The translations under genes were made by a program, and so were the position numbers. The notes under the pieces were generated by a model, which was given only the letters and a program-made list of their open reading frames with translations, was not told the origin of the DNA and ran no database searches. A stretch of DNA of 64,000 nucleotides from positions 3,595 through 67,594 of the forward strand of contig JAPPGZ010000078.1 in the NCBI GenBank assembly GCA_028874905.1. The letters are read 5' to 3'. Positions 10,677-49,333 of the stretch are shown piece by piece (position 1 is the stretch's first letter; each line of letters starts with the position of its first letter). The stretch is from Gemmatimonadota bacterium. GTDB lineage: Bacteria; Gemmatimonadota; Gemmatimonadetes; Longimicrobiales; Gaopeijiaceae.

Positions 10677-10716
10677 GCGGCGTCCGCAGCCGCAACCGCT
10701 TGCCGGCCCGCGCCGA

Positions 10717-10740
10717 CTGATAGCAATCTGCTATCAGTTT
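10717..10740. terminator. Hairpin between convergent genes (possible intrinsic terminator)
   Basis: Perfect 9-bp stem CTGATAGCA-atc-TGCTATCAG followed by TTTG on the + strand. Sits between the permease stop and the PDZ gene stop. The T-run is short. Confidence 0.45.
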
Positions 10741-10741
10741 G

Positions 10742-32731: not shown

Positions 32732-34975
32732 ATGCCCAAACCATCACCCGGCCACCCCGTACTCCGCGCAGCCCGACTCTGGCGCGATCGCTGCCTTCTG
32801 GACGGCGGATCCGTATTCACCGAGAAGTCGCTCTGGACGTCGGACAATGTCGACTACCTGGTGCGCGACTACGCAGAGAATCTGGATTACGGCGAGGGCG
32901 GTTTCTTCCAGAAGCTGAAGAACCAATTGGCCGGGTCGCCCGCCAGCGCCAAGCAATTGGCGGCGGAGATGTTCTGGGTGATGTACCTGTTCTGCACTCG
33001 AGCGTCGATGCAGCCGGGGACCAAACGCCGGCAGATTCGCCAGGTCTGGGAGTGGTCGCGTGACCCACTTCCCGATGCCCCGTTTGAGCTCGATGTGGCA
33101 CTCCAGGACGGCGTCGGCAATCCCGGCACGGCCTTCAACACGCATCGGTGGAGGGAATTCCTCTTCTTCATCCTCGCGATGAGGGCGTGGACGGCGTTGT
33201 CGAAGCCGCAACGCGAAGCCCTGCTTTCGGATCCATGGAATCTCGCGGAGTGGCTGAAGGAACAGGACGAGACCCGCACCCGCCAGCTGCGGCACATGCT
33301 GTTGTATCTTCTCTTCCCCGATCACTTCGAGCCGTACGCAACGGCGTCTCAGAAGAGGATCATCCTGCGCGAGTTCACGAAGGAGTTCGGGGAAGATCCG
33401 AACCAGTTCGACTACAACGACAGAATCACCGTCGATCGGCAGCTGCTTGTCGTCCGCGAGACGCTCAAAGAAAAGGGTGCCTCGGAGGACTTCGATTTCC
33501 ACGACCCACCCTATCTGAAGGTCTGGCGGCCAGGTTCGGAAGAAGGGGACGGTGAAGCCGATCTGCCGTCTCAGGAAGAGGCCGCAAAATGGTACCAGGA
33601 GAAGTTCGGGAAGGCTCGCGTGTGGGCGTTCGCGGCGGGTGCCGGCGCGCGATACTGGGATGAGTTTCGGGAGAAGGGGATCATCGCGATCGGATGGGAC
33701 CAACTAGGAGATCTCCGTGAGTTCGACAATAGGGCAGGCATCCACGAAGAACTCCGTGACATCCTCGACAAGCCGAATCCGCTCAATGACTCGCTCGCAT
33801 GCTATCAGTTCGCCCACGAGATGCGGCGCGGGGACTATGTGCTCGTCAAGCAGGGGCGCACGTTGTTGTTGGGCTACGGGGTAATCGAATCCGACTACGA
33901 GTTTGACGAGAGCCGTCCCGAATTCCGACATACACGGGGCGTTAAGTGGGACAAGGTGGGTCGTTGGCGGTTTTCGAAGGAGCGTGCCATGACCACCAAG
34001 ACCCTCACCGACTTCAGTTACAGCAAGCAGTGGCTTCATTTCGCCTTCCAACTCATGGAGGAAGGGGCGGACCCACTCCCGCCTCCTCAACCGCCCGACC
34101 AACCGTACACTCGCAAGGAAGCCCTGAAGGATCTCTTCCTTTCCGAAGCTGATTTCGACCACATCATCGAGGCCCTCGAACGCAAGAAGAACGTCGTCCT
34201 CGAGGGCCCTCCCGGGGTGGGGAAGACCTTCATCGCCAAGCGACTGGCCTACCGGGTCATTGGATACAAGGCTCCCGAGAGGGTGCGGATGATCCAGTTC
34301 CACCAGAGCTACGCGTACGAGGATTTCATCCAGGGGTACAGGCCGACGGACGATGGCGGATTCGAGCTGCGCGACGGAGTGTTCCATACGTTCTGCCGGG
34401 AGGCTGCGGCGAATCCCAAAGACCGGTACGTTTTCATCATCGACGAGGTCAACCGCGGGAATCTCAGCAAGATCTTCGGTGAGCTGATGATGCTCATCGA
34501 GGCCGACAAGCGGGGTGCCGAATACGCCGTCCCGCTTACGTATTCTCCTAGCGCCGACCCATTCCACGTTCCCCCGAACCTCTATCTCCTCGGGATGATG
34601 AACACGGCCGACCGGTCATTGGCGATGGTGGACTACGCGCTACGGCGCCGGTTCGCGTTCACCCGCCTGCTACCTGCCTTCGCGACCGATCAATTCAGCG
34701 ATTTCCTCCACAAGCATGAAGTGGACGAGGATCTGGTCAACAAGATTGTCGACCGGCTGTCGGCGCTGAACGAGCGAATCCGCGCCGACCGCAAGAACCT
34801 CGGGCCGGGCTTCGAGATCGGACACAGCTTCTTCTGCCCGGGCGACGACGACGAGGGACTCGATGATTCCTGGTACGAAGCGATCGTCCGGCGGGAGATT
34901 GAGCCCCTGCTACGGGAATACTGGTTCGACCGCCCCGAGCACGTTGAGGAGCAAATCCGAGTGCTGCTGGCGTGA
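32732..34975 (+). CDS. mcrB: McrB-family AAA+ GTPase with ~480-aa N-terminal extension
   Basis: Walker A GPPGVGKTF, Walker B FIIDEVNRGN, McrB signature MMNTADRS and ALRRRF. N-terminal region holds an unassigned ~290-aa domain plus a PUA-like-looking segment (IIAIGWDQLGDL...GDYVLVKQGRTLLLGYGVIESDYEF...HTRGVKW). Confidence 0.9.
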   Translation: MPKPSPGHPVLRAARLWRDRCLLDGGSVFTEKSLWTSDNVDYLVRDYAENLDYGEGGFFQKLKNQLAGSPASAKQLAAEMFWVMYLFCTRASMQPGTKRRQIRQVWEWSRDPLPDAPFELDVALQDGVGNPGTAFNTHRWREFLFFILAMRAWTALSKPQREALLSDPWNLAEWLKEQDETRTRQLRHMLLYLLFPDHFEPYATASQKRIILREFTKEFGEDPNQFDYNDRITVDRQLLVVRETLKEKGASEDFDFHDPPYLKVWRPGSEEGDGEADLPSQEEAAKWYQEKFGKARVWAFAAGAGARYWDEFREKGIIAIGWDQLGDLREFDNRAGIHEELRDILDKPNPLNDSLACYQFAHEMRRGDYVLVKQGRTLLLGYGVIESDYEFDESRPEFRHTRGVKWDKVGRWRFSKERAMTTKTLTDFSYSKQWLHFAFQLMEEGADPLPPPQPPDQPYTRKEALKDLFLSEADFDHIIEALERKKNVVLEGPPGVGKTFIAKRLAYRVIGYKAPERVRMIQFHQSYAYEDFIQGYRPTDDGGFELRDGVFHTFCREAAANPKDRYVFIIDEVNRGNLSKIFGELMMLIEADKRGAEYAVPLTYSPSADPFHVPPNLYLLGMMNTADRSLAMVDYALRRRFAFTRLLPAFATDQFSDFLHKHEVDEDLVNKIVDRLSALNERIRADRKNLGPGFEIGHSFFCPGDDDEGLDDSWYEAIVRREIEPLLREYWFDRPEHVEEQIRVLLA

Positions 34976-36081
34976 AGATCCCGGTCCGCAACATCTACTA
35001 TCTCCTCTGTTACGCGTGGGACCATGTGAGGGAAGGGGAAACGGTCGATGTCGGATCCGAGCAGTTCGGGGGGCTGGTCGACCTGTTCGCCAAGGTGCTG
35101 AACGATGGCGTGTCGCGGCTTGTTTCGCGCGGCCTCGATCGCGACTACCTCGTCGTCCACGAGGACGTCAGGGGGCTCAAGGGGAAGCTCGATTTCGCGA
35201 CCACGATCAAAAGGAACCTGCTCCTCAACGGCAAGACCCACTGCGCCTTCGACGAATTGAGCTATGATGTGCCGCAGAACCAGATCCTGAAGGCGACGCT
35301 ACGCGGCCTGGCTATGGTCGCCGCCGTCGACCCGGCCCTGCGACGGCATACCGAGCGCCTGTACCGAAAGCTGGACGCGGTCTCCGATGTCCCTCTGACC
35401 ACGAGTCTGTTCCGCACCGTCCGGGTCCACCGGAACAATCGGTTCTACAGCTTCCTCCTGCACCTTTGCCGCGTCATCCACGAGAATCTCCTGGTGAATC
35501 AGGAGGAGGGGACGGCTGAGTTCAACGACTTCCGTGAGGATGAGCACCAGATGGGGCTGCTCTTTGAGCAGTTCGTGAGGACCTTCTGTGAGCGCGAGAC
35601 CGACTACAAGGTGAGCGCGCCGAAGATCGACTGGTTCGGCGCGGAAGCTAGCGAGACCGATCTGCGGCACCTGCCCCGGATGCAGACGGACATCGTGCTG
35701 CGGTCGCCAACGCGTGCGATCATCCTGGACACCAAGTTCTACAAGAATCCGCTGGACAGGAGATGGGAGGGGGAGCGGGTGAACGCGGGGAACCTCTACC
35801 AGATCTTCTCGTACGTGACGAACTGGACGGCGAGGGCAGAGGCGGGCGAGCCCGAACCGGAGGGGTGGCTACTGTATGCGGCGGTGGATGGTAGGTTCGA
35901 CTATCGGTTCGAGCTGATGGGGAAGCCGGTGCGAGTGTGCTCGGTGGATCTGGGACAGGAGTGGAGAGGGATTGAGGAGGAGCTGAAGGGGTTGGTGGGG
36001 GGTCCGGCCGTGAGCACAGCCACACGGAGTGTAATGTCTACACAACAAAGGGTGACGTTTCGGGCGACGCCAACGAGATGA
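34972..36081 (+). CDS. mcrC: McrC (PD-(D/E)xK nuclease subunit of McrBC)
   Basis: N-terminal NIYYLLCYAW and nuclease core MQTDIVLRSPTRAIILDTKFYK..NLYQIFSY. 4-nt overlap with mcrB. Confidence 0.9.
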   Translation: MKIPVRNIYYLLCYAWDHVREGETVDVGSEQFGGLVDLFAKVLNDGVSRLVSRGLDRDYLVVHEDVRGLKGKLDFATTIKRNLLLNGKTHCAFDELSYDVPQNQILKATLRGLAMVAAVDPALRRHTERLYRKLDAVSDVPLTTSLFRTVRVHRNNRFYSFLLHLCRVIHENLLVNQEEGTAEFNDFREDEHQMGLLFEQFVRTFCERETDYKVSAPKIDWFGAEASETDLRHLPRMQTDIVLRSPTRAIILDTKFYKNPLDRRWEGERVNAGNLYQIFSYVTNWTARAEAGEPEPEGWLLYAAVDGRFDYRFELMGKPVRVCSVDLGQEWRGIEEELKGLVGGPAVSTATRSVMSTQQRVTFRATPTR

Positions 36082-37130
36082 GGAGACAGAATGGGATGAA
36101 GATGTTCATAGTCTTGGATTCCAACATGTGGATATCGCAGGTCGGACTTCAATCCCAAAACGGAGCCGCCGTTCGACACTTTGTCAAGCGACGTAAAGCT
36201 ATCATGGTAATACCGGAAGTAGTGGAACTTGAAGTCAGGTACGTGCTCACTGAACAAATGCTCGGCAAGAGAAAAGCAGTTGAGACCAACTACCGGCAGC
36301 TATTGCCAATAATGGGAAGTCTGCGAACTCTCGATTTACCCTCTGAAGATGACATCCGCGACGCAGTTGCTGCTCGTATCCTTAATCTCGATGTTCCGAC
36401 CCGTCGGGTGTCCCTTAACCTCGACGTGTCCCGGGCGTCGATGCTGAAAGTCATAGAGAAGCATTCGCCTTCCAAATCCAAGGAACAGTTCCGAGATGGC
36501 GTTATATGGGGTCATTGCTTGGACCTACTAGATGAGGGGAACGTGTATCTCATAACGAAGGATAAAGACTTCTACGAGAGGCGAAACTACAACGAGGGCT
36601 TGGCATCCGAATTGGTTGATGAAATGAGGGCACGCGGTACTAGGGGAGAGGTGAAGCTGCTCCGGGACCTGACTGACCTGCTACAGGAGATCCGCGTCAC
36701 GGTCAATCTAGACGATGGTGAGATCTTTCAGGTCGTCCGGGATGGACAAGGCGAGACGATAGATGAATTGCTGGTTGCGCACGGCTTTGGCTTGGTGGGT
36801 GAGGTCCGAGGTGAGGTGCAGTACTTCGCGACGGAAAAGGCTAGTGAGATCTACTTCAGGTTCCAGTTTTCACATCCTTGTGAGGACGTCATCGGGGCTG
36901 GTCGTCGCGCTGGGGTATTGAACCTCAAGGGATTCGGATTCCTCGATTTGGATACCAAGATGGCGATTGAGGTGAGCTTGTCAAACCTGCTGTTGGACTA
37001 TCCTGATTGGGTTGCCGATGGATCGTCGAGGGGTGCCGTGTTCTTGTCGGCGCATGTCAACGCACCGCTGGTTCACGAGATTCGGCTGCCGCTCTCCACC
37101 GCGAAAGGTAAGGAGGACGAGCCGCAGTGA
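36078..37130 (+). CDS. PIN-like (DUF4935-type) domain protein
   Basis: FIVLDSNMW, PEVVELEV, FRDGVIW and LITKDKDF give the D-E-D-D acidic pattern of a PIN-like fold. ATGA overlap with the mcrC stop; in-frame ATGs at 36096/36102 follow an AGGAG. Visibly lower GC than mcrBC. Confidence 0.55.
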   Translation: MRRQNGMKMFIVLDSNMWISQVGLQSQNGAAVRHFVKRRKAIMVIPEVVELEVRYVLTEQMLGKRKAVETNYRQLLPIMGSLRTLDLPSEDDIRDAVAARILNLDVPTRRVSLNLDVSRASMLKVIEKHSPSKSKEQFRDGVIWGHCLDLLDEGNVYLITKDKDFYERRNYNEGLASELVDEMRARGTRGEVKLLRDLTDLLQEIRVTVNLDDGEIFQVVRDGQGETIDELLVAHGFGLVGEVRGEVQYFATEKASEIYFRFQFSHPCEDVIGAGRRAGVLNLKGFGFLDLDTKMAIEVSLSNLLLDYPDWVADGSSRGAVFLSAHVNAPLVHEIRLPLSTAKGKEDEPQ

Positions 37131-37182: not shown

Positions 37183-37452
37183 TCACCTGACACCCGGCCT
37201 CGCAGAGGTCAGTGCTACGCGGCGCCTTACCTGCTTTTTGGCCGAGGGCTTCCAAGCGCGCGGCTTCCGCGGTGTTCCGGTGTTGAAGGCCTTGTAGGGT
37301 GTCCGCCCTGGCATCCCGCGGCGGCGGTGAGGCCGACGGGTGTTGTGGGTCTCAATACAGCCGCCCAAGTCGGTCCGCACCTTCTCGGCGGTGGGTGCGT
37401 GCCACCGTAGACGTAGTGGCATTCTCGTACACGGGTATCCCTTGCCCAACAC
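37183..37452 (-). mobile_element. Relic of an IS481/IS3-type DDE transposase (C-terminal ~60 codons only)
   Basis: ...DLGGCIETHNTRRPHRRRGMPGRTPYKAF resembles the conserved YN..RPH..L.G.TP tail of integrase-core transposases. No catalytic core or terminal repeats present. Confidence 0.45.
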
Positions 37453-37480
37453 CGCTCAACCTGCTATCTTCTGGGAACGC

Positions 37481-37501
37481 AATGTGACATTCTGTCACAT
37501 T
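37481..37501. promoter_or_regulatory. Perfect 9-3-9 inverted repeat upstream of dcm (candidate operator for the methyltransferase HTH)
   Basis: AATGTGACA-ttc-TGTCACATT ends 39 nt upstream of the ATG at 37541. Confidence 0.55.
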
Positions 37502-37540
37502 GCCGACAGGGCTGCGGAAGATGAGGAAAGGACGGGCGAC

Positions 37541-38821
37541 ATGATCACTCTCAAGCCGGCTGAGGTGCGCTCCTACAGAGAGCACTTGGATCTTACTCAG
37601 GAGGAACTCGCGAGTCGGTTGGGGCGCACTCGCCGCACCGTCATTCGCTGGGAAAGTGGTGAGACGACGCCCTCCACGGCAACGGCAATGGTCCTTCAGC
37701 AACTCGTCCGAGAATCGGGTCTTGGTGAACTCAATGGCTACCGGCCCGGCCATTTCACCTTCATCGACCTCTTTGCCGGGATCGGCGGCATGCGGTTGGG
37801 CTTCGAGCGTCGCGGTGGCCGATGCGTCTATACCTCCGAGTGGGACCGTTTCTCCCGGCAGACCTATCGGGCGAACTTCCCGCCAGAGGAGCAGATTGCG
37901 GGCGACATCCGGGAGGTCCGTACCACCGACGTCCCACAACATGACCTGCTCCTTGCGGGGTTCCCGTGCCAGCCGTTCTCGCTGGCCGGTGTCTCCAAGA
38001 AGAACTCACTTGGTCGGCCGCACGGATTCGCGGACGAGACGCAGGGGACACTCTTCTTCGACATCGCCCGCATCCTGCGGGATCACGAACCCGCGGCGTT
38101 CCTCCTGGAGAACGTGAAGCACCTCCAGAACCACGATCGCGGCCGGACCATGCACGTGATCCTCCGGACGCTGGAAGAGGAGCTCGGATACCACGTCACC
38201 ACGCGGGTGATCGACGCCCGTTCGTTCTTGCCCCAGCATCGGCAGCGTGTCTTTATCGCCGGATTCCGGGAGGACACGGACTTCGATTTGAAGGATCTCG
38301 ATCTGCCGGATCCGACAAAGGGTCCCCGGCTCGATTCGGTGCTTCACCCCGAGGATGGCTCCGAGGAAGCCGAGTCGCCCTACACCACGGGGGAGTCGGC
38401 AGTTGTCTCGGCGAAGTACACGCTCAGCGACCACCTCTGGTCGTATCTCCAGGAATACGCCCGAAAGCACCGGGAGCGGGGGAACGGATTCGGATTCGGC
38501 CTGGTCGGTCGGGAAGACACGGCCCGCACTCTGTCCGCTCGATACTACAAGGACGGGTCCGAGATCCTCATTCGTCAGGACGGGGCCAATCCCCGACGAC
38601 TGACGCCACGGGAATGCGCCCGGCTGATGGGGTTTGACGCTCCTGGCCAGAGCCTGTTCGAGATTCCGGTATCCGACACCCAGGCGTACAAGCAGTTCGG
38701 GAATGCAGTGGCTGTTCCGGTGGTCGATGCCATTGCGCGTGCGATGGCCCCGCATGTAGCATCGAGGGCGTCGAACCAGGACCAACTCAGTCTGTTCCCA
38801 GTCTCAGGGCGGTTTGATTGA
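37541..38821 (+). CDS. dcm: DNA (cytosine-5)-methyltransferase with N-terminal XRE-type HTH
   Basis: HTH LTQEELASRLGRTRRTVIRWESGE. C5-MTase motifs I FIDLFAGIGGMRLGF, IV GFPCQPFS, VI ENVKHL, VIII QHRQRVFIAGF, X QFGNAVAVPV. Confidence 0.95.
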   Translation: MITLKPAEVRSYREHLDLTQEELASRLGRTRRTVIRWESGETTPSTATAMVLQQLVRESGLGELNGYRPGHFTFIDLFAGIGGMRLGFERRGGRCVYTSEWDRFSRQTYRANFPPEEQIAGDIREVRTTDVPQHDLLLAGFPCQPFSLAGVSKKNSLGRPHGFADETQGTLFFDIARILRDHEPAAFLLENVKHLQNHDRGRTMHVILRTLEEELGYHVTTRVIDARSFLPQHRQRVFIAGFREDTDFDLKDLDLPDPTKGPRLDSVLHPEDGSEEAESPYTTGESAVVSAKYTLSDHLWSYLQEYARKHRERGNGFGFGLVGREDTARTLSARYYKDGSEILIRQDGANPRRLTPRECARLMGFDAPGQSLFEIPVSDTQAYKQFGNAVAVPVVDAIARAMAPHVASRASNQDQLSLFPVSGRFD

Positions 38822-39240
38822 CCGATATCGTCGATTCCCGGACCCGCAGCGCCATGATGGCGGCGATCCGGGGGAAAGACACGAAGCCGGAGGTCATTGT
38901 ACGCCGGTTTCTGCATCGCTCGGGCTTCCGGTTTCGACTGCACCGCCGTGACCTTCCGGGACGGCCGGACATCGTGCTCCCGAAATACCGCACCGTCGTC
39001 GAAGTCAGAGGGTGCTTCTGGCACCGACATGAAGGTTGCCCGTTCGCCTACATGCCGAAGTCGAATCGCAAGTTCTGGGAGTCGAAGCTGAACGGGAACC
39101 GGGAGAGAGATCAGCGGAATCTCAGGGAGCTGGCCAAGCTCGGCTGGCGCGCCATCGAGGTCTGGGAGTGCGAGTTGGGGGACGATGGGGTTCTTGAACG
39201 GCTGCCGGGTATGATCCGGGATCGGGTCTCCGGGGACTGA
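38818..39240 (+). CDS. vsr: Very-short-patch repair endonuclease
   Basis: RSAMMAAIRGKDTKPEVIVRRFLHRSGFRFRLHRRDLPGRPDIVLPKYRTVVEVRGCFWHRHEGC is the Vsr signature. TTG start overlaps the dcm stop by 4 nt. Confidence 0.9.
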   Translation: MTDIVDSRTRSAMMAAIRGKDTKPEVIVRRFLHRSGFRFRLHRRDLPGRPDIVLPKYRTVVEVRGCFWHRHEGCPFAYMPKSNRKFWESKLNGNRERDQRNLRELAKLGWRAIEVWECELGDDGVLERLPGMIRDRVSGD

Positions 39241-39256
39241 CAATGGATTCCGGCCC

Positions 39257-39892
39257 ATGAGCGTACGCGTCTTCATGAAACGGCTGGCGGAGGTCGAGAT
39301 CAATCCGCGGCTTTCGAACCAGCACGAGTTCAACGCTGGTGTGCTTCGACGGGAACTGGGGTTCGAAGCTGACCCTACTCGAGGCCATGTGGAATTCCTG
39401 TTCTACAAGACGGATGGCGGCGAGCCGGTTGTCGTGCGGGAGAACTACACGCTGTACGACGCGCGGCGGGACAACCCCAAACGCACCGAGTGGCGGATGT
39501 ACTACACCAACCTTGGTGTGGCGGCGCACGCCCGTGTTGATGACCTCATGCTTCTCTTCCGACCGGATTCGAGTAGCACCCACCTCATAGCCGTGATCGC
39601 ACGCAAGGGCACTGCGGTTGAGCGCGCGTTAGCCAAGCAACTCGCCGGACGCGAACCAGAGGAACTTGGTAAGAGGCTCTTCGTGGATTCGAGGAACGTC
39701 GACGCCGATACCTGTCGCATGCTTCTGCGATCCCTCGAAGGTTCTGTTTCGCCAGCCGAAGTCACGGCTGCCGCAGTTCGGTCGCATCCGCTCTTCCGGC
39801 AATCGTTCGCCTATGGTGTCATGCCGAACACGAACGAGATGGCAGGCGCGGCCCAGAAGATCATCACCGACCTTGGCGTAACGTCAGTCTGA
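39257..39892 (+). CDS. EcoRII-like restriction endonuclease, N-terminal (effector DNA-binding) part; separate ORF
   Basis: Position downstream of dcm-vsr, size, and a KRL(A/S)..N..(L)SNQHE start resembling the EcoRII-N KRLSANDTG..HQ segment. Ends 19 nt before the C-terminal ORF, in another frame. Confidence 0.5.
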   Translation: MSVRVFMKRLAEVEINPRLSNQHEFNAGVLRRELGFEADPTRGHVEFLFYKTDGGEPVVVRENYTLYDARRDNPKRTEWRMYYTNLGVAAHARVDDLMLLFRPDSSSTHLIAVIARKGTAVERALAKQLAGREPEELGKRLFVDSRNVDADTCRMLLRSLEGSVSPAEVTAAAVRSHPLFRQSFAYGVMPNTNEMAGAAQKIITDLGVTSV

Positions 39893-39911
39893 GCCCGACG
39901 AGTTCATACAA

Positions 39912-40472
39912 ATGGCGCTCGAAGCCGAGACGGAGCTGTTCATGTCCATCGAAAGCAGAATGGGCGATCGGGCGCTCGAAGAGGCCGTCAAGGAGGGTCG
40001 CTACGATTTCCACAAGGTGATGCAGATCTGTACGAGCTTCTCCCAACGGCGGAGGAGTCGCCGCGGCCAAAGCCTTGAGAATCACTTCCGTTTTCTTCTC
40101 GAGGAGCTCAGAATCCCTCACAGCTATCAGTGCACCACCGAGCGAGGGCGGAAGCCGGATTTCGTCTTCCCAAGTTGCGAACACTATCACAACCCCGGGT
40201 TCCCGGCCAGCCACCTGCGAATGGTCGGTTGCAAGACGCTGGTACGGGAGCGGCACACGCAATGGCTGGGAGAGGCGCTTCGGATTCCGCTCAAGTATGC
40301 CCTCTGTGTGGACCCTGGACTCTCGGATCGGTTGGTGGCGAGGTACAGAAAGCGATTGAGGTTCTTTCTGCCCCGGAGACTCCTAGATGCCACCTATGCC
40401 GATAGAGAAATCGGGGGACTACTCGGTTCGATTGATGACCTACTCGATGAGCTTCGTTTGCTAGCCCCATGA
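39912..40472 (+). CDS. EcoRII-like restriction endonuclease, C-terminal catalytic part; separate ORF
   Basis: GRKPDFVFPSCEHYHNPGFPASHLRMVGCKTLVRERHTQ matches my recollection of the EcoRII-C core (KPDF.FPS...Y.dp.FP...L.mLg.KTtcKdRWRQ), but with substitutions in the KDRWRQ stretch. Confidence 0.65.
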   Translation: MALEAETELFMSIESRMGDRALEEAVKEGRYDFHKVMQICTSFSQRRRSRRGQSLENHFRFLLEELRIPHSYQCTTERGRKPDFVFPSCEHYHNPGFPASHLRMVGCKTLVRERHTQWLGEALRIPLKYALCVDPGLSDRLVARYRKRLRFFLPRRLLDATYADREIGGLLGSIDDLLDELRLLAP

Positions 40473-40622
40473 ATTCCTCTTGCTGCCCACAGAACCCACC
40501 GAGAAACGAGCCGGGTGTGATGTGCTTCGTTGCCGACGAAGGAGATTGGTTTGCTAGTTGGCTATTTGCCCTTCTGGCAATGTCGAGATGCAGAATCAAG
40601 CTCTTCGACCGAGGAGGATTAC

Positions 40623-41729
40623 GTGCGTAGACAGACTAGTGAGTGGAGTGTGCGTATGCTGTCGGATTTCAGGAGCCGGATCAACGTTGACGCTGAGTAT
40701 CAGCGGGGAGCCGTTTGGTCCCGAGGGCAGCAGGCCCTTCTCATCGATTCGATTATTCGTGGCTTCGATATCCCCAAGATATTCTTACGCAAGCTGCCTG
40801 AAGGAGGCAAACACCTCTTTGACGTGATCGACGGTAAGCAGCGGCTGACTGCCATATGGGCCTTTGTCTCGGACGAATTCACCTTATTGCGGAATACTGA
40901 GCCGTTTCCCGAGCTTGGTGACCTCAGCGGTCAGCGATGGTCTGATCTCTCTGATATGGCGAGAGATCGCTTGCAGTTTACGAACATTACCATATCAAAG
41001 ATCGAAGACGCAACTGACGACGAAATCCGCGAGCTCTTCTTGAGACTGCAACGAGGCGAACCATTGAACGCGGCTGAGAGGCGCCACGCAATGTCGGGGC
41101 CACTGCGAGATTTTGTGGCCGACCATCTCGCCAGTCATGGACTGTGGGAACTCACACGGCTGCGGGCCGTGAGATTCGGCAAGGACGAGCACTCCGCCAT
41201 TCTCCTAGCCCTCGTCTGCCACGCCGGGCCAACGGGCCTTAGGGGTGCCGACCTCCATCGCCTTTATGAGATGGATCATTTCGATCCCACCGGGAACGAT
41301 GCGAAGCGGACGCTAAGGCTATTGGACGCCCTCCGAGATGTTGCGAGCGTGCAGCCAGGAGCGATAAGAACGCGATGGGGTCTTGTCGACCTCGCTCTGG
41401 TGCTGCTAAGGCTAGGCGATGAGGAGATTCCTGTGCCGCCCGACAAGTTGATGGAGTTCTTCTTGGCGTTTGAGAGAGAGCGCCGAGACGTTGCAGAGAT
41501 ATTGGCAGATTTGCAAACAAGACTGGTGGAGCCTACGGAGGCAGAGAGGGGGATTTCGGAAGAGGAAGACGACGTCAGGGAACAGATAACTCCAGAAATG
41601 CTGACCTACCATCTTGCTTTTGCCCGCGAGGGGGCCAGCAAAGAGAACGTGGCCAAACGGGCTAACACGATGTATGCTAGACTTAGGGCGTTTCTTGAGT
41701 TTACCGAGCTAGGCGGTCAGCGGAGATGA
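40623..41729 (+). CDS. DUF262 (ParB-like NTPase, GmrSD/SspE N-terminal type) protein without a nuclease domain
   Basis: YQRGAVWSRGQQALLIDSIIRGFDIPKIFL and VIDGKQRLTAIWAF. No DUF1524/HNH His-motifs in the C-terminal helical half. GTG 40623 is preceded by GAGGAGG; ATG 40656 is an alternative. Confidence 0.8.
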   Translation: MRRQTSEWSVRMLSDFRSRINVDAEYQRGAVWSRGQQALLIDSIIRGFDIPKIFLRKLPEGGKHLFDVIDGKQRLTAIWAFVSDEFTLLRNTEPFPELGDLSGQRWSDLSDMARDRLQFTNITISKIEDATDDEIRELFLRLQRGEPLNAAERRHAMSGPLRDFVADHLASHGLWELTRLRAVRFGKDEHSAILLALVCHAGPTGLRGADLHRLYEMDHFDPTGNDAKRTLRLLDALRDVASVQPGAIRTRWGLVDLALVLLRLGDEEIPVPPDKLMEFFLAFERERRDVAEILADLQTRLVEPTEAERGISEEEDDVREQITPEMLTYHLAFAREGASKENVAKRANTMYARLRAFLEFTELGGQRR

Positions 41730-42460
41730 AGTGGTCGGAGCTTATCTGGGGGCGTCCAGCAGCGGTCATCGCATCGGTGGGTTTGGCCCTCGCCGCGTTC
41801 TGGGAGGCCTCGATCTGGGTCGTACTGTGTTCTGTGTTCATCGTGGTGCATGCGTTCGTAGGCTGGGTGCGGGAACGGGGAGTCGTCTGGAGGCTGGGTG
41901 CAAACTACCGAGACGTGTTGCGTAGAGTATTGCACTTGCTCTCCGATCTTGGGAATCTCTCGGCAAATGGGTATGATCTCTGGATGATCGAGGTGTACCT
42001 GCCGAAGTACGTCTGGGTCGGAATGGCTGCCAATTGGCGACCTGGCCTGCAGAGGGCATTAGTACGAGAGTTGTCGGTGTCGGTTGGCGGCGCTTCAGAG
42101 CCGCCCCACAAATTTGCATTGACGCATCAGTTGTTTGGAAGGTGCTTCCGACGGGGGAGGTCGGAGCTTTGGTGGGATCGATCTCTCACGGATTCGTCAT
42201 TGAATGGAGTCAATAGCCCAGCGGAACTAGACGAGAAGACGTATACGGAACTAGAGCGGACGTTTGGGGTGGTCAGCGTTCACCCCATCGTGGACGCCGT
42301 TGGCAAGGATTGCGAAGGCCTGATAGTTATCCATGTGGGGCGGGACAGTGAGGCAGCAACGAAGGTGCTTGGTGCCCTCACGCAGCAAGAAGGGAGGCGT
42401 AGAATACTCGGGGCATGCAACGACATTCACAGCTACATCAAAAGAAGAGAGTTGCTCTAG
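41726..42460 (+). CDS. Two-TM membrane protein with soluble C-terminal domain (unknown family)
   Basis: ATGA overlap with the DUF262 gene. TM helices AAVIASVGLALAAFWEA and IWVVLCSVFIVVHAFVGWV. C-terminus (VVSVHPIVDAVGKDCEGLIVIHVG) is faintly GAF-like. Confidence 0.5.
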   Translation: MKWSELIWGRPAAVIASVGLALAAFWEASIWVVLCSVFIVVHAFVGWVRERGVVWRLGANYRDVLRRVLHLLSDLGNLSANGYDLWMIEVYLPKYVWVGMAANWRPGLQRALVRELSVSVGGASEPPHKFALTHQLFGRCFRRGRSELWWDRSLTDSSLNGVNSPAELDEKTYTELERTFGVVSVHPIVDAVGKDCEGLIVIHVGRDSEAATKVLGALTQQEGRRRILGACNDIHSYIKRRELL

Positions 42461-44874
42461 TCTTCTAGGGCGGTGATAAGCTGTTCCATTTCGAACGTCA
42501 GCAGGAATTCCGCGTAGTGGTTGCTCAACAAATCCTTGATGTAGTCCGCTACCGGGACATCGGTGGAGTCACGTTGTAGTTGGTACTTTCGATTCTGCGT
42601 GATAGCGTACAGGAACAAGGTGTGAAAGTACACAGCTGACATGTATCGCTTCTCGGCGACGGTGATCGCCTCTTGGCTCTTCAGGCCGGAACGATGATTG
42701 AGCCACACTCTGCTATCCATATTGACATAGATTACGGTCAACATGTCTCCATCAATCGCAGGGTGAACGATGGTAGCGTGATCCATGTCAACGCCTTGGT
42801 TCTCCAATTCCTGCCACGTCAGGTCTCCTACGGTGTTGTGCCTATAGATGCGGACAAGCTTTGGGAGGCCCAGTTGCGGGTCCAATTCCTTGTGGCCCTG
42901 ACGGGCAGGTCTTTTCCGTCGTTCAGGATCGACAATCTTGACGAGAATGTTCTCTTGGAATCCACCTTCGGGACCAGTCAGCGTCGCCGATATGGTTATG
43001 GCGTCTCCCACCTGGACATCGTTCGTTGGGTTCAAGCCGAGGCGTATCGTTCCTCGATTCGGGCTCGACTTGATGAGATTGAACAGTTGGTCGACACGAT
43101 TCGGCAGCGGACGACGCTCACCTTCTCCGCCGGAAACATCGTATTGGAGCAGACCGACCGACAGCTCGCCAAGATCACTGATGCGATCGAAGTACTGATT
43201 CTCAACATCGGTCGAGAACTTGATGGTGCGTTGGCTTCCGAACGGAAGTTGGACCATCGGCATGCCATTGGCGCGGTCTGACAACTCAGCCCGGAAGAAC
43301 GAGGGAAACCGCTGAGGACTGAACGGCGGTGGTTCCCGCTTCTTCGAAGCAGGCTTCTTGGGACGTGTCGTCTTCCGGTTACCCTTGCCTGATCCCTTGA
43401 GCTTCAGGGTGTGGTCGAAAAGCCGCATCAACTCGTTACGGAACGGAAGGTTAGTCGTGAGGTTGCGGAGAAGATCGTCGGCGCCAGTATCGTCAACTGA
43501 TATCTTTGCCTTCCTCTCCTTGTAGATCTCCTTTAATCGCCCGTCTCTCAAGAGCTTGCCTAGGCGCTTTCGGAGCTCCCGTGACTCCCGTCCGTCCTTT
43601 AGCCGGTCCCGTGATGCCATGAACAACTCTTGGCGAAAACCGATGTCGAGATCCGTGCAATCCACATGGACCAAGACGTAGTCCTTGAGGAGTTGAAACT
43701 TGAGAGTTCGAGAAACGAACTCAGACGTATAGTGGCCGTGTACTTGTCCGTTAACCGAGAAGATCACGGTCATGTTGTTCTTGAAGAACTCTCGGCGAAT
43801 CGTTCTCTTCGTGTCCTTTGCGTTGCGATCACCGACACGAGGCCGAAATACATACGTCGTGACCTTAGCGGAGCCGATCTCACTGTCGCTGAGCGACTGC
43901 GAGAACGAATCTTCCACGTACCTACTCGAGTCTTCCTCAAGCCTGCGTTTTAGGCCATAGATGTCACGTTGAAGGTTCCTGTCGTCAGGGTAACGAGATG
44001 GCTGGTCGATAGTGAAGAACGGAAGAGCGGGATTGAAGAGATACTCATTGAGGCTCTGGTTCAAGTCCCTAGAGATGACGGAGCGTGAACCGCTCGGGAG
44101 GTCATATGAGTAGAGCTTGATGATCGTGCCGGTGGTAAAACGGCGATTGCGTAGCCCGAGATCCAAGTCCTGAATCGAGAAGGAAGGGACACATCCATTA
44201 GGAGCGAAATACTCGTACCAAGTATTCCGCTTTGTCGTCTTTTCGAGCTCCGTGAGGGGATGCCGCCGGAGCAGAGTAAAACCGAGATTCCCGGAACCGT
44301 CCCATCTTCGGGAGCCAATGAGTTGGTAACGCTGCTGACCGCAGAAAGCGATCGCGCCCGCTCCGCCCATGTTGTATTTGCCCTGCACGAAATGAATCTC
44401 GTTTTTGTTGCCTCGAAGCAGTGAGAGGAAAGTGTCACTGAAGTCGTGTGGATGTTGCCCTTCCCCGTCGTCGTAGATCAGGAGCGAGGTCTCGAACCTT
44501 GGTCCATCTGCGATGATCTGAATGCTCTCGGCCTGTTTGCTCCGGAAGCTTCGTAGGTCCCAGTCTCCGGAATCAGGGAAAAACCGCGCGACGGCGTCGT
44601 CCACGGAGCGAGGCGCCTCACTAGACCGTGGATCGATACCGTCCTGAAGGCAGCGCCGTGTCAGAATCGCGTCGATTGAGTTTATGACCTTCTCAACTAG
44701 AGCCGGGATTGGCGAAGCCTGCTGGTTCTCAACTACGCCGAAGTTACTCTCGATCTCACCGTAAGGTCGCCAGTTGGCCGGGTCGTGGAAGGTGGAGTAG
44801 CGCTCGATGACGGCAGAGACGCCGGTCTCAGTGTCAGCGCGAAACAACTCCCAGAAAAGTGATTCGGACTCCAC
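42457..44874 (-). CDS. GHKL (Bergerat-fold) ATPase-like large protein, 805 aa
   Basis: N-box EKVINSIDA, G1 YDDGEGQ, G2 GKYNMGGAGAIAF within the first ~180 aa. Basic low-complexity linker (KGSGKGNRKTTRPKKPASKKR). The remaining ~600 aa are unassigned. GTG start; lower GC than the neighbours. Confidence 0.6.
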   Translation of the reverse strand: MESESLFWELFRADTETGVSAVIERYSTFHDPANWRPYGEIESNFGVVENQQASPIPALVEKVINSIDAILTRRCLQDGIDPRSSEAPRSVDDAVARFFPDSGDWDLRSFRSKQAESIQIIADGPRFETSLLIYDDGEGQHPHDFSDTFLSLLRGNKNEIHFVQGKYNMGGAGAIAFCGQQRYQLIGSRRWDGSGNLGFTLLRRHPLTELEKTTKRNTWYEYFAPNGCVPSFSIQDLDLGLRNRRFTTGTIIKLYSYDLPSGSRSVISRDLNQSLNEYLFNPALPFFTIDQPSRYPDDRNLQRDIYGLKRRLEEDSSRYVEDSFSQSLSDSEIGSAKVTTYVFRPRVGDRNAKDTKRTIRREFFKNNMTVIFSVNGQVHGHYTSEFVSRTLKFQLLKDYVLVHVDCTDLDIGFRQELFMASRDRLKDGRESRELRKRLGKLLRDGRLKEIYKERKAKISVDDTGADDLLRNLTTNLPFRNELMRLFDHTLKLKGSGKGNRKTTRPKKPASKKREPPPFSPQRFPSFFRAELSDRANGMPMVQLPFGSQRTIKFSTDVENQYFDRISDLGELSVGLLQYDVSGGEGERRPLPNRVDQLFNLIKSSPNRGTIRLGLNPTNDVQVGDAITISATLTGPEGGFQENILVKIVDPERRKRPARQGHKELDPQLGLPKLVRIYRHNTVGDLTWQELENQGVDMDHATIVHPAIDGDMLTVIYVNMDSRVWLNHRSGLKSQEAITVAEKRYMSAVYFHTLFLYAITQNRKYQLQRDSTDVPVADYIKDLLSNHYAEFLLTFEMEQLITALED

Positions 44875-45030: not shown

Positions 45031-45879
45031 TCATAGAGCACACACTGCGCAGGGCACTGTGTCGTCTTCGTCGTCCAAGGCATCCCCCAAGACTTCGACA
45101 AGCGGCAAATCCCGCCGGTTCTTCGCTGCCGCATGCATCGCGTCCCGATGGCGGGTGAGGATTTCGCCTTTACGAGATCGCAATTCCGTCAGAGTCTCCC
45201 CCCCAGACCAAGTGTACTGGCGACCGCGCATCGCTCGGTCCCGGAAGTCGGCATCACCGGCCACCCCGGCGTCCTGGAGCACCTTCTGCTCGATCGCCAC
45301 GGCCCGCTCGAACAGTTCCGGGTGACGCTCAGCGAGCCCAATCCATTCGGCCTTACGCTGATAGAAGCAGAAATAGCACCCCGATCGCGTCCTCCATTCG
45401 TAATACTTGGGAAGCCCAATCCCAGCGTCCTCCAAAATCCGCATGACCCCCTCGCGGTCGACGCCGTCCTCGATAAAGGGGAACCGGGACTGTATGTTCG
45501 ACTTGGTAGAGATGTACCCCTTGCGGTTCGACTCGTCGGCGCGGATTGCGACGTAGGAGATCGCCGGGGCGTCGCCGATCCACTCCTCGATGGGCTTGAT
45601 CTTCATGTTCTTCGTGCACCACCGCATCTGTGGGGATGGCAGCGTGCCGCGAAACACCTCGAACCAGTGGTCGAACCCGCGAGTCGCGTTGAGGTGGGTG
45701 ATGGGTTTGCCGAGTATGACCTGAAGCCGGGTCAAGTACTCGTAGGTCTCGGGGAGCTCGGCCCCGGTGTCACAAAAGAAGTACTCCATCGCGGGCACGG
45801 TATGCCTGAGGTACACGGCAAGGGCACTTGAATCCTTGCCTCCAGAGATACCGCAGATGTGCCGAGTGGCGTCAGGCAT
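45031..45879 (-). CDS. sspD: PAPS-reductase-like PP-loop ATP pyrophosphatase (SspD-like)
   Basis: PP-loop ISGGKDSSAL and FCDTGAELPETYEYL. ATG 45879 gives an ATGCCTGA overlap with the upstream gene stop. Confidence 0.75.
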   Translation of the reverse strand: MPDATRHICGISGGKDSSALAVYLRHTVPAMEYFFCDTGAELPETYEYLTRLQVILGKPITHLNATRGFDHWFEVFRGTLPSPQMRWCTKNMKIKPIEEWIGDAPAISYVAIRADESNRKGYISTKSNIQSRFPFIEDGVDREGVMRILEDAGIGLPKYYEWRTRSGCYFCFYQRKAEWIGLAERHPELFERAVAIEQKVLQDAGVAGDADFRDRAMRGRQYTWSGGETLTELRSRKGEILTRHRDAMHAAAKNRRDLPLVEVLGDALDDEDDTVPCAVCAL

Positions 45880-48800
45880 TCCGGACAATGTTTGTGGTGA
45901 GATGGACCGCGGCATCGTCATCCGCCACTTCCTCGGAGGGGAGAAGCCGCTCGGCGATGACCGCAAGGAGCGCCGAGAGCCCTCTCTTCTCCGACCCCAC
46001 TGTAGCTACTAACTGGCCCATGGCCCTGTCAAGGACATCGATGACCATTTGCTGATCGCGATCGTCGACGCCGACAAGCGCAACGTGCTCTCTGCCGTCG
46101 GGACGAGTGAGCGTCACGCGGAAGGGTTTGAACGGCCCTCCACCATCAGCACTCTGGTTGGCGTGGAGGGCCACGAGCCTTAGGAACGCCTCCACCCGGC
46201 GACCCAGCACGTGCCGAAACCGGGCGCGATCCCGATCGGTCCATTCAGACGGTGCTTTCTCGGCAACCACAGTCGCGATCGTGTCGACCCAGTCGGCGTC
46301 GGCACTCAGGGTGTCGTTGGCGAGCGAGAGAACGAAAGCCCGAACCTCAGGATCGAGAACCTCGTCCTCGAGGGACTTGGCGAAACCGGTAATCGCCTTG
46401 CGGGATGTCTCACCGCTCGCGTGCAGTAGATCTTGGAATAGCTGCTCAAGCAGCCTGTCCGCACAGCCGACGAGCTCGTCCACAGCGTCAACGAGCCGGG
46501 CGGCGTAGGTGCCGGCCGCCGGGTAGCTGGACGCGGACGGCGGGACAGCGGGCATCGTGAGCGCATGCGGCAAGCTCTCGAACAGGAGTTCGTCTGGCTC
46601 CACGGCGGTGAAAAGAGCCTCTTTAGCCCTGACCGTCGCTTCGCTCAAGCTGTCCGTTCTGCGTGTGAAGTTGTCCAAACGCTGAACGCGAGCAACCAAT
46701 TGGCCGACAACGCCCAGAACGTTGGCGACCCGGACCCGGCCGAGTCTTGGCCTCACACCCATTCGCTCGGCGATGGCCTCTACGACCTGGAGGCGTGCGC
46801 CGGTCGTATTGGCAAAGTGCTTGACCTCGAAGTGTCCCGGGTTCCGGACCATTCGCTCAGACAGCTCCGGCGTGAGCACCGGAATGAACGTCCCGTGCTC
46901 GTAGATGGCGACGTCCTCGTCTCGAACCAGCAGTGCCGCAGTCACGAATACCGGTAGGACGCCGCGCTTCATGCCCACAGGGGGAGACAGCAGGCAGGCG
47001 TAGATGTCCCGAAGATTGACTCGACGCCGGGTCGCCCGGCGGAACTCTTCCTCTACCACTCTCCACGCCTCTTGGAGCGTTTGGTCGGTCGGCGGGCCGA
47101 AGATCCAACTGGACTCCTGCGGCTCGAACCTGTGAAGTCCGGTTCTCGCGAGGAAAGCCCGGTACATCGCGACATCCGGGCCGTGGCCCGCCAAGCCCAA
47201 TTGCCCAGTGTCGCCCCTCTCTATCATGCCTTCCAGAAGCATGCGGCGCGCCTTCGCTCCCTGTGAGGTCACGGTCGTGCGATTGAGGACTTCGTTGCCC
47301 ACAGACGGGGTGGACCCGTAAGCGATGTCACACGCGTTGGAAATGGGCGCGCTTCCGCGTCCGCTCTTCAGGTCGCGACCCCCCGAGGCGTCCACTAATT
47401 TCCACCGGCAACGACCGGTCCCAAACGCCTCCACGATCGCGCGGTCAACGTGCATCTGGGCTTGGGCGAATCTCTCGCTGACTTCCTGTCGTGCTACCCA
47501 GTCCTCTTCGACCGTCGGATGCTCCATTACGGACTTCACAGCCACTAGTTCACGCGCGGCCTCGTCCAACGCCGTCAGGTCTTCCGCTAATCCTGCCACT
47601 ACGGGCTTAGATGCCTTGGATGACTTCGCCAGGTGTGGCAGCCCACCTGGACCGACCACGAACAGAGCCTCGCCATCGTAGTCGGAAAATGCGTCGAGCG
47701 GTTCGACGGTTTCTCCACCGGCCACGTACCTTCGGGCAAAAACCCTCAGCACGTCGTGTTTGGCACTGTGCCTCGCGGCCACCATGGGGTTGGCCGTGTC
47801 GGTGTCCGACAGTATTTCGGCGAGCGAGCGGTCTTGCGTTTCCCTCCGAGCCCTGGAAAGGAGCTGATGGATATCGACATCGGTGCCCTGCCAGATGCGG
47901 TACTCGTCGGAGAAATCGCGATAGGTAACCACGCCGGCGGCTTCCAACTTCGGGAGAAGGTCGCTGGCATCAGGCTCCAACTCGCCTAGTAGCCGCTTCG
48001 ATGCCCGAAGCACGCCGGTTGTTGAGACGAGGTTGAGGATGGCGATGGCTTTGGCCAGGCGCCGCTGAGCCCCGGTGAGGTTGGGGGCATCGCGCAGACG
48101 CGTTGCGATCTCTGTCCAGCGGCCTTGGTCGACCGGAACGCCCGCCATTGTGCCGTTGGCCACGAAGTAGTCGTAGATGCCGGCCAGTCCCAAGGACGGA
48201 AGCTGGCCCTTTGGTGGTAGCGGGGTCGCGTTCAGGTACGAGGCCGCGCTGGCTGGGTCGGCGCTCGTCAGGAACGAGAACAGCGTTCGTTCGTGCTGCC
48301 CATATCGGTTACACAACTCTGGCAGGACGGCCGCTGCCAGGGGATGAAGTGGATAGCAGGACGCTACGACATCAGGGTCACTCGTTTCCGAGATGCCTAG
48401 TGTGCGCATCGTAGCGGACTGCCGATCGGCCCACTCGTCGATACGATCGCGGACTCCACCGTCTGTCTGAAACACGGTTCCGATAAGCGCCCGGGTCTGG
48501 CTTGCTGATTCGACGTAGGCCATGGACTCGAAGCGCCCCTGCACCTTTGCCCACTCCCGGCGTTGCGGTCCTTCCGTGTGCGACAGATAGTCTTCGAAGG
48601 AAAGGTGCTGCAACGTCATCAGGAAGATGGGGAGGCCTGAGCCTTGCCCGGCTTCGGCGAGTTGCTGAAGCAGATAGGGGTCCCCTTCGCTGCTGTCGGC
48701 GATCGCTTCTAGGTTCTTTCCGAATTCGTCGATCACCAGGAAAAAGGGCCCGTCACTAGCCAGGCACTTCGCAACCTCTATCAGCGCGGCTGGCGAGGGG

Positions 48801-49333
48801 CCAGTACGGCGGGGATCGTCGCTAGCCGCGTCACTGAGTGCCGTCTTGAGCGCGTCCGCGGCTGGGAAGCGGCGACGGGAGGGAATCCGGCCGAAAGCCG
48901 CCAACACGGCACTGTGGAGTCCCTTAAGTACAGTGAGATTCAATGGTTCACGCGATGCAGTCACCAAGCCCCGATGGAATCCGGTTTCCTGCGTTCCGTG
49001 ATTGTCGTGAGCCATCCACACGGAATCTGCCATGTCCGGGTCTGCCGCTTCCACGAGCCCGACTGCTGCATCCCGCGTTGCCCCGTCGGGCCCGAGTAGT
49101 CCGTCCAACAGCAGGGCTAGTGACGACTTGCCCGAGCCGTACGGGCCGGTAAGGGACCAAGCCCCTCCCGCCTGATGGGTTGCGGCCACGGTGAGAATCC
49201 GATCAACGGCTTCGAGCGCTCGCGCTGTAACGACATAGCCCTCGAGAGGTTGAGACTGGCGGGAATCTCGCTCGAGATTCGCGGACCGTGCGAAGCGTGG
49301 CAGGATTCGAACATGATCGCCGAGTGTCGGCAT
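45872..49333 (-). CDS. sspC: Large P-loop ATPase (SspC-like)
   Basis: Walker A GPYGSGKSSLAL and Walker B-like FFLVIDEFGKNLE. Size of 1153 aa. Position between the DUF4007 and PAPS-reductase-like genes. Confidence 0.7.
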   Translation of the reverse strand: MPTLGDHVRILPRFARSANLERDSRQSQPLEGYVVTARALEAVDRILTVAATHQAGGAWSLTGPYGSGKSSLALLLDGLLGPDGATRDAAVGLVEAADPDMADSVWMAHDNHGTQETGFHRGLVTASREPLNLTVLKGLHSAVLAAFGRIPSRRRFPAADALKTALSDAASDDPRRTGPSPAALIEVAKCLASDGPFFLVIDEFGKNLEAIADSSEGDPYLLQQLAEAGQGSGLPIFLMTLQHLSFEDYLSHTEGPQRREWAKVQGRFESMAYVESASQTRALIGTVFQTDGGVRDRIDEWADRQSATMRTLGISETSDPDVVASCYPLHPLAAAVLPELCNRYGQHERTLFSFLTSADPASAASYLNATPLPPKGQLPSLGLAGIYDYFVANGTMAGVPVDQGRWTEIATRLRDAPNLTGAQRRLAKAIAILNLVSTTGVLRASKRLLGELEPDASDLLPKLEAAGVVTYRDFSDEYRIWQGTDVDIHQLLSRARRETQDRSLAEILSDTDTANPMVAARHSAKHDVLRVFARRYVAGGETVEPLDAFSDYDGEALFVVGPGGLPHLAKSSKASKPVVAGLAEDLTALDEAARELVAVKSVMEHPTVEEDWVARQEVSERFAQAQMHVDRAIVEAFGTGRCRWKLVDASGGRDLKSGRGSAPISNACDIAYGSTPSVGNEVLNRTTVTSQGAKARRMLLEGMIERGDTGQLGLAGHGPDVAMYRAFLARTGLHRFEPQESSWIFGPPTDQTLQEAWRVVEEEFRRATRRRVNLRDIYACLLSPPVGMKRGVLPVFVTAALLVRDEDVAIYEHGTFIPVLTPELSERMVRNPGHFEVKHFANTTGARLQVVEAIAERMGVRPRLGRVRVANVLGVVGQLVARVQRLDNFTRRTDSLSEATVRAKEALFTAVEPDELLFESLPHALTMPAVPPSASSYPAAGTYAARLVDAVDELVGCADRLLEQLFQDLLHASGETSRKAITGFAKSLEDEVLDPEVRAFVLSLANDTLSADADWVDTIATVVAEKAPSEWTDRDRARFRHVLGRRVEAFLRLVALHANQSADGGGPFKPFRVTLTRPDGREHVALVGVDDRDQQMVIDVLDRAMGQLVATVGSEKRGLSALLAVIAERLLPSEEVADDDAAVHLTTNIVRNA

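Follow-up and report, generated by a model that had tools for sequence, protein, structure and literature searches.

Two overlapping genes in a 64,000-nucleotide (nt) stretch of a Gemmatimonadota genome (contig JAPPGZ010000078.1, positions 3,595 to 67,594; the whole stretch is called the window below) probably make up a new accessory module of SspABCD, a phage-defence system based on DNA phosphorothioation. The first gene encodes a 368-amino acid (aa) protein with a DUF262 domain, and the second a 244-aa protein with two N-terminal transmembrane (TM) helices and a soluble tail that is modelled as GAF-like (hereafter 2TM-GAF). The domain content of the two proteins, the coupling of their genes, their strict co-occurrence, their co-evolution, their linkage to ssp genes and their movement as a cassette are matters of observation. 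With regard to function, the tentatively favoured reading, held at somewhat less than an even chance, is that the DUF262 protein would be an SspE-like, phosphorothioate (PT)-sensing nucleoside triphosphate (NTP) switch whose bound partner, a membrane GAF protein, supplies the output. An earlier note, made from the letters of the DNA, had suggested that a sensor of the GmrSD/SspE type was retained here and its nuclease replaced by a membrane-acting partner.

The DUF262 protein has the sensor architecture and lacks a nuclease. The longest possible open reading frame (ORF) begins at a TTG at 40530; GTG 40623 is taken as the start because the N-termini of homologues align from there (clade consensus MRKETSEWSIRML..., alignment of 32 clade members) and a Shine-Dalgarno sequence lies 5 nt upstream. 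The hallmark motifs pointed out in the earlier note are present (EYQRGAVW at residues 25-32 and DGKQRLT at residues 70-76), and the forms QR..W, DGKQR and ELF..LQ.G.PL are invariant across the 32 clade members (Q27, R28, W32; D70-G71-K72-Q73-R74; E137-L138-F139...Q143-G145). Since these NTPase motifs do not vary, the protein likely has an active nucleotide switch. The only Pfam match is GmrSD_N/DUF262 (4.8e-18, residues 22-154), with no DUF1524 or HNH domain at E up to 0.01. An NCBIfam scan gave no match and a search of PDB sequences nothing significant, and the top PADLOC match, the Menshen protein NsnA (1.5e-27; next PD-T4-2_A), covers the DUF262 part alone (residues 17-170). An AlphaFold2 model built from the 32 clade members (predicted local distance difference test score, pLDDT, 86) consists of an alpha/beta ParB-like domain to about residue 145 and of helices alone at residues 160-366, so that the C-terminal half contains no beta-beta-alpha-metal nuclease element. 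The helical, nuclease-free C-terminus read from the translation is thus borne out by both the domain search and the model. Structural neighbours of the model in the PDB (Foldseek) are BrxU of the GmrSD family (1.3e-5) and SspE (1.2e-2), followed by the CTPase domains of ParB, Noc and KorB and by sulfiredoxin; BrxU/GmrSD and SspE, the nearest of these, sense modified DNA.

The stop codon of the DUF262 gene overlaps the start codon of the 2TM-GAF gene in an ATGA, as had been noted, which implies translational coupling of the two genes. Loci for comparison were taken first from one-genome-per-species contigs fetched with the DUF262 protein, and later from three further genomes and a metagenome scan with the DUF262 alignment (a scan of metagenome contigs with the 2TM alignment gave nothing, as no stretch of that protein is conserved enough). 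All of the first loci carry a 2TM homologue immediately 3' of the DUF262 gene (E 1e-26 to 1e-55), and eight full-length 2TM homologues, from Gammaproteobacteria, Latescibacterota, Acidobacteria, Azotimanducaceae and others, are 56-61% identical. With the clade delimited by E<1e-100 to the window protein (identity above 50%; members in several phyla), 17/17 other loci have the 2TM-GAF gene directly 3', at a spacing of -20 to +11 nt as counted from longest-ORF starts, and none of 95 loci with more distant DUF262 genes has it. Its recurrence in every related locus means that the pairing is not a chance one, and the conservation of the downstream ORF that the earlier note had asked about is now established. 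Pairwise identities of the two proteins are correlated across 11 loci (r=0.85). So far, the pair is found almost exclusively in metagenome-assembled genomes (MAGs).

Some individual loci show the pair broken or altered. In L046/L047 a related DUF262 gene is followed by an insertion sequence (IS) integrase and is probably disrupted. In L002 (positions 1-12160), a relative whose DNA is about 84% identical to that of the window, several IS elements (DDE_Tnp_1, ISL3, IS21) interrupt the DUF262 gene and the 2TM region; as the GHKL gene beside them is intact, the pair is decaying in that lineage. Another locus (L127, 5051-7344), adjoining sspD and sspA, holds an apparent in-frame DUF262-2TM-GAF fusion (P0129, 579 aa), which was discounted as a Rosetta-stone link because it lies on a contig of 2x coverage, so that an assembly error is possible, and because its 5' end is broken as well.

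The 2TM-GAF protein belongs to a family that has no consistent match in Pfam, PADLOC, NCBIfam, PDB sequences or PHROGs, and no source names any of the members examined. A word-indexed search that returned just three proteins had made it look like an orphan; this idea was rejected after locus scans and a profile search of 1.8 billion representatives, which revealed a closed family of 63 clusters, nearly all of about 240 aa or fragments thereof (one extra match was a spurious repeat protein). An AlphaFold2 model built from 40 family members (pLDDT 88.9; predicted template modelling score, pTM, 0.82) contains a short helix (residues 10-23), then a long one (29-78), and behind these an alpha/beta domain with the strand and helix order of GAF domains. 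All 26 PDB matches with E up to 1e-3 are GAF or homologous IclR ligand-binding domains, as are nearly all of the top 50 PDB neighbours (E about 1e-4; target-normalised TM-score up to 0.57). The soluble tail, in which a faint GAF likeness had been seen earlier, is therefore confidently modelled as a GAF-like fold. The assignment is structural only: with the E-value limit relaxed to 1, Pfam GAF models still match none of the 40 family members. Each of the 18 proteins compared has two conserved hydrophobic peaks (about residues 12-26 and 32-46), in keeping with the two TM helices read in the earlier note. The loop between the peaks is short and poorly charged and usually 4-7 K/R residues (five in the window protein) follow directly behind the second peak; this positive-inside charge pattern, present in all 18, predicts an N-in/C-in hairpin with a cytoplasmic GAF-like domain. 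Residues W86, Y91, R114 and W149 are conserved in the family and could conceivably line a ligand pocket. Neighbours among viral predicted structures are TM-plus-GAF proteins, several of which carry a class III or T holin annotation (E 1e-5 to 1e-3, TM-score 0.3-0.46); these annotations are a lead and no proof of hole formation.

The link to phosphorothioation is far stronger than the earlier note, which had the nearby ssp operon to go by, could know. In an all-against-all BLAST of the loci, sspB, sspC or sspD lies within 10 kb of the pair in 14/14 loci for which 5 kb of sequence or more was available, compared with 0/41 distant-DUF262 loci of at least 10 kb (Fisher p=2e-13), with the qualification that not all loci are independent (L003/L004 and L043/L044 are near-duplicates). 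The locus with the apparent fusion is one more ssp-linked example. The pair and the ssp genes occur in at least five gene orders in other loci (arrangements i to v in Table 1), and the window, in which sspA-B-C-D and a gene for an 805-aa GHKL-like protein on the minus strand converge on the pair, is a sixth. The convergence with the GHKL gene (42457-44874) near the ssp operon (45031-51582) is as previously noted. The window sspD is 77-84% identical to the genes at the sspD position in L003, L005 and L009, and its true start is suggested by 282-aa homologues to lie near 45879. The position of the pair within a low-GC defence island holding McrBC, a Dcm/Vsr/EcoRII-C system and Ssp might be accounted for if the two genes formed a defence or toxin-antitoxin-like module of their own, sharing islands with ssp but having no functional PT link, and Ssp-independent systems with DUF262-only sensors such as Menshen do exist (PMC12065111). 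However, the adjacency of ssp in every informative locus, in several orientations and phyla, and the location of the pair between sspD and further same-strand genes in seven loci make such a module very improbable.

Although the pair is tied to ssp, it does not follow the phylogeny of the modification genes. Across the 11 loci, SspB, SspC and SspD co-vary among themselves (r=0.95-0.97), whereas the DUF262 protein does not co-vary with SspBCD (r about 0-0.2; 0.22 with SspC and 0.01 with SspD). Between L005 and L010, the DUF262 protein is 77% identical, 2TM-GAF 65%, and the helicase, GHKL and PLD proteins encoded behind them 87%, 89% and 77%, while SspC is only 28% identical; deeply divergent Ssp lineages have therefore exchanged the pair, there as part of a five-gene unit. 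Since it co-evolves internally and is uncoupled from SspBCD, the pair moves as a cassette. SspE and SspFGH have been exchanged among Ssp lineages in a like manner (PMC8092258), which places the pair on the sensing/restriction side, apart from the modification operon.

This mobility bears directly on the main rival of the favoured reading, a regulatory alternative in which the DUF262 protein would be the Ssp counterpart of DndB, an NTP-modulated DNA binder limiting ssp expression or PT density, and the membrane GAF protein would be the signal input, sequestering or freeing the DUF262 protein when it senses a small molecule or a redox signal. Movement with a restriction cassette between divergent ssp lineages would be unexpected of a repressor that serves one given ssp promoter, and the pair lies 3' of sspD or convergent with it, not at the head of the operon. 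The DUF262 protein also lacks matches to the DndB models of Pfam and NCBIfam. Nevertheless, ParB-like and helical domains without a nuclease are the architecture of DndB and NsnA (PMC12065111), the DUF262 protein is highly conserved, GAF domains typically sense small molecules, and the pair coexists with complete nuclease cassettes. Additionally, the closest relatives of the window (L125 and L126) are 82-84% identical to it in DNA from sspA through the stop codon of the GHKL gene, and synteny ends exactly at window position 42457, so that the slot of the pair is filled by a 160-aa gene and a DndB-family gene (PF14072, DGQHR motif). This replacement keeps a DndB-like regulatory role alive, although on balance the role is doubtful. 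The same two genes recur in L124 (the neighbours in L125 and L124 match PF14072); the 160-aa protein has no Pfam match.

A further set of observations concerns the genes for nucleases, helicases and GHKL ATPases near the pair. In seven loci (L003, L004, L005, L010, L040, L041, L042) the pair is followed by a trio of genes, whose products are an SF2 helicase of about 535 aa, a GHKL ATPase of the HATPase_c_3 type (about 646 aa) and a PLD-like protein of about 302 aa; no such trio is seen behind the pair in L009. The trio, which looks like a MORC-type restriction cassette, travels with the pair between divergent ssp lineages; its products (in L003, encoded at 7801-12257) are ResIII/Helicase_C, MzaB-like and ZacB/DrmC-like, respectively. 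A PbeA-like PLD-helicase accompanies the pair in L043/L044 and L085. With PLD, helicase or GHKL genes at so many pair loci, the nuclease is not simply replaced: of the earlier proposal, the nuclease-less DUF262 protein and the conserved membrane partner stand, and replacement is too simple an account for a pair that mostly sits beside nuclease-bearing cassettes. Alternatively, the pair might be a sensor or adaptor subunit of these cassettes, licensing or localising the neighbouring nucleases (helicase+GHKL+PLD, PbeA-like PLD-helicase or the 805-aa GHKL protein), with 2TM-GAF as a non-killing anchor or regulator. The tight spacing of sspABCD, DUF262, 2TM-GAF, helicase, GHKL and PLD genes on one strand in the seven loci, the joint movement of the last five, the PbeA-like genes in L043 and L085 and the abutting 805-aa GHKL gene in the window and L002 would all suit an adaptor. 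It is nonetheless unlikely, as no one cassette is common to all loci, none is recognisable in the available sequence of L006, L008 and L009, and the GHKL805 family occurs with ssp without the pair.

The weakly GHKL-like 805-aa protein has more than 2,600 homologues of about 810 aa, all unnamed and about 58-60% identical across many lineages; the nearest one with a named source comes from a Gemmatimonadota MAG (85% identity), and a PDB sequence search with the protein gave nothing. The GHKL gene was rejected as an obligate third component, because it is absent from the other pair loci except the close relative L002 and its family adjoins sspBCD in three loci without the pair (L123, L125, L126). 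It is thus an independent ssp-linked module. In several genomes a gene of the family comes straight after sspD, and the family may be an Ssp partner in its own right. At another locus (L051, 370-2767), a SIR2_2/ThsA-like gene (3e-31) overlaps a distant DUF262-only gene (29% identity). The DUF262 gene there is convergent with a GHKL805-like fragment, which is the geometry of the window with a different effector; nuclease-less DUF262 proteins therefore do pair with separate effector genes.

Under the favoured reading, host DNA would be marked with PT by SspABCD; in the steps that follow, we infer the recognition of PT, the direct binding between the two proteins and any effect on the membrane. 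The DUF262 protein, as an SspE-like sensor without a nuclease, would read the PT and DNA state through its ParB-type NTP switch and a putative DNA-binding helical domain, as the DUF262 and helical N-terminal part of SspE senses PT and hydrolyses GTP (PMC9646914, PMC13251355). The two proteins would be made 1:1, with the DUF262 protein binding the cytoplasmic GAF-like domain. A change of nucleotide or DNA state during infection would then free or re-organise the GAF protein as the output, and its TM hairpins would act on the membrane by depolarisation or growth arrest, resembling effectors with TM helices and a ligand domain and T-type holins. The PLD, helicase or GHKL cassettes, where present, would add restriction at the DNA level. 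Within this reading, actual membrane damage or abortive infection, as proposed in the earlier note, is doubtful.

Several points weigh against the favoured reading. PT sensing by the DUF262 protein is argued from the analogy with SspE only, and the similarity to GAF domains is purely structural, with TM-scores of 0.3-0.57. No output or pore-forming feature is visible in the 2TM-GAF protein, and an assembly error may explain the single apparent fusion of the two proteins. At 52-77% identity across phyla, the DUF262 protein is more conserved than is usual for a defence sensor. Most loci carry a nuclease-type cassette beside the pair, which would make a membrane effector dispensable for defence, and the closest relatives of the window have the 160-aa and DndB-family genes in place of the pair.

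Regardless of which function applies, the pair is a strictly conserved, cassette-like Ssp partner across phyla (Gammaproteobacteria, Latescibacterota, Acidobacteria and others), in which the DUF262 sensor known from SspE is separated from its nuclease and coupled to a membrane protein of a new family. No description of a DUF262, GAF or TM partner of Ssp turned up in searches of the literature. The DUF262 systems in the Menshen survey are GmrSD, PD-T4-2, Dazbog, SspE and Menshen, with the remark that they are "not limited to" these (PMC12065111), and 83.9% of sspBCD loci are without a known restriction partner (PMC8092258). A reappraisal of PT systems by the Aravind laboratory treats SspE as the equivalent of DndB and does not settle what the ParB-type component does (PMC10853773). 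The DUF262/2TM-GAF pair is a third form of that component, and bears on its real role in DndB and SspE and on whether PT status can signal to a non-nuclease output. That the pair is also a third kind of Ssp partner beside SspE and SspFGH, with PT sensing wired to a membrane-embedded GAF protein and not to a nuclease, is rather doubtful; if true, a PT-based system would here have a membrane or abortive-infection output for the first time, and the GAF domain might, further, read a nucleotide state that the DUF262 enzyme produces. The comparison of loci also exposes other uncharacterised ssp-linked modules, namely the 810-aa GHKL family, the helicase-GHKL-PLD trio and the pair of 160-aa and DndB-like genes.

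The surroundings of the pair in the window (Table 1) form the defence island mentioned above, across which (32-52 kb) the guanine-plus-cytosine (GC) content drops to 0.54-0.62 from about 0.67 in the flanks, with the lowest value in the PIN_12 gene (0.526). The Dcm, Vsr and EcoRII-C-like genes resemble a type II restriction-modification system that includes very-short-patch repair, in which the 211-aa ORF may be the split N-terminal part of the EcoRII-C-like enzyme. Three Transposase_31/YhgA-like genes flank and break up the island, and L125 too has a Transposase_31 gene beside ssp. The stop codons of the convergent 2TM-GAF and GHKL genes share 4 nt (42457-42460), leaving no intergenic space or terminator-like site between these genes, and a scan for promoters and terminators around the pair gave counts not above those of shuffled sequence.

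Table 1. Features of the window, and ssp-linked gene arrangements at other loci (numbered with L)
Feature	Position or locus	Strand	Remarks
McrB-like AAA_5 GTPase (747 aa), McrC (369 aa), then PIN_12 protein (350 aa)	32732-37130	+	overlapping stops/starts
HTH-fused Dcm C5-methylase (493 aa), Vsr, 211-aa ORF, short EcoRII-C-like nuclease (186 aa)	37340-40472	+
Vsr	38818-39240	+	7e-29
Shine-Dalgarno GAGGAGG	40611-40617	+	5 nt 5' of GTG start of DUF262 gene; read from sequence
DUF262 gene	40623-41729	+	GTG start, TGA stop; 368 aa; ParB-like NTPase domain and all-helical C-terminal domain
ATGA stop/start overlap, DUF262 to 2TM-GAF gene	41726-41729	+	read from sequence
2TM-GAF gene	41726-42460	+	244 aa; N-terminal TM hairpin, long stalk helix and GAF-like cytoplasmic domain, as modelled; family without annotation
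GHKL-like gene	42457-44874	-	805 aa; directly 3' of sspD, convergent with pair; HATPase_c_3 E=0.004
sspD (PAPS-reductase/DndC-like)	45031-45966	-	longest ORF; NCBIfam PAPS-reductase-type matches
sspC	45872-49333	-	PADLOC SspC, E=0, 1020 bits
sspB (DUF4007)	49333-50325	-	PADLOC SspB 2.2e-97; Pfam DUF4007 3.5e-79
sspA (cysteine desulfurase)	50326-51582	-	PADLOC SspA 1.3e-122; Pfam Aminotran_5
Transposase_31/YhgA-like genes (n=3)	24624-25712, 30610-31719, 53722-54621	all -
Arrangement (i)	L003, L004, L005, L009, L010, L040, L041, L042	one strand	sspA-B-C-D, DUF262, 2TM-GAF
Arrangement (ii)	L008		pair convergent with sspD-C-B
Arrangement (iii)	L006		pair, then sspB-C
Arrangement (iv)	L043/L044		pair, sspA on opposite strand, sspBCD, PbeA-like PLD-helicase
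Arrangement (v)	L085		sspCD, PbeA (3e-181), PbeC, two more genes, then pair
GHKL family with ssp	L123 (Rhodocaloribacter litoris)		sspBCD, IS, GHKL813, second GHKL (589 aa)
GHKL family with ssp	L125/L126		sspABCD, GHKL809, 160-aa gene, DndB-family gene
160-aa and DndB-family (PF14072, DGQHR motif) pair	L125 12741-14484; L126 13234-14484 (DndB-like gene); L124 12055-13841

The CBASS effector Cap15, the Pycsar effector PycTM and the type III CRISPR effector Cam1 share with 2TM-GAF an architecture of N-terminal TM helices and a globular regulatory domain. A TM segment with a globular domain is also found in the T4-type holin T, and the viral structural neighbours of 2TM-GAF include the class III/T holin annotations noted above. 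In contrast to holin T, in which the globular domain is periplasmic, that of 2TM-GAF is predicted to be cytoplasmic, and neither holin T nor the TM effectors of CBASS, Pycsar and CRISPR show sequence homology to 2TM-GAF; no signalling-nucleotide synthase lies near the pair.

Amongst DUF262 systems, Menshen offers a sensor that works with a separately encoded effector, and NsnA resembles the DUF262 protein in its DUF262 plus helical, 'ParBDB'-type architecture, which is reported also for DndB and for the N-terminal two-thirds of GmrSD and SspE (PMC12065111). Unlike in Menshen, the next gene always encodes 2TM-GAF, and no gene for the NsnB ABC-ATPase (AAA_15/DUF3696) or the NsnC inPIN nuclease was found among the neighbours examined at pair loci; the NsnA match, moreover, is limited to the DUF262 domain. 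The likeness to DndB lies in a nuclease-less ParB-type and helical protein of about 370 aa linked to a PT-modification operon. The differences are the lack of a match to PF14072 or the NCBIfam DndB model (E up to 0.01), the position after sspD, the obligate membrane partner and the absence of co-evolution with the modification genes. A further close parallel is with SspE, GmrSD and BrxU, which likewise combine an N-terminal ParB-like NTPase domain (QR..W, DGxQR and FxxxN-type motifs) with a helical middle domain behind it; BrxU and SspE are the best structural matches of the DUF262 protein, and the pair, like SspE, adjoins sspBCD. The DUF262 protein differs from SspE and GmrSD in lacking the DUF1524/HNH nuclease, at half the length of SspE, and it gives no PADLOC match to SspE at E up to 0.01. 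It is always coupled to a 2TM-GAF gene, whereas SspE has no such partner.

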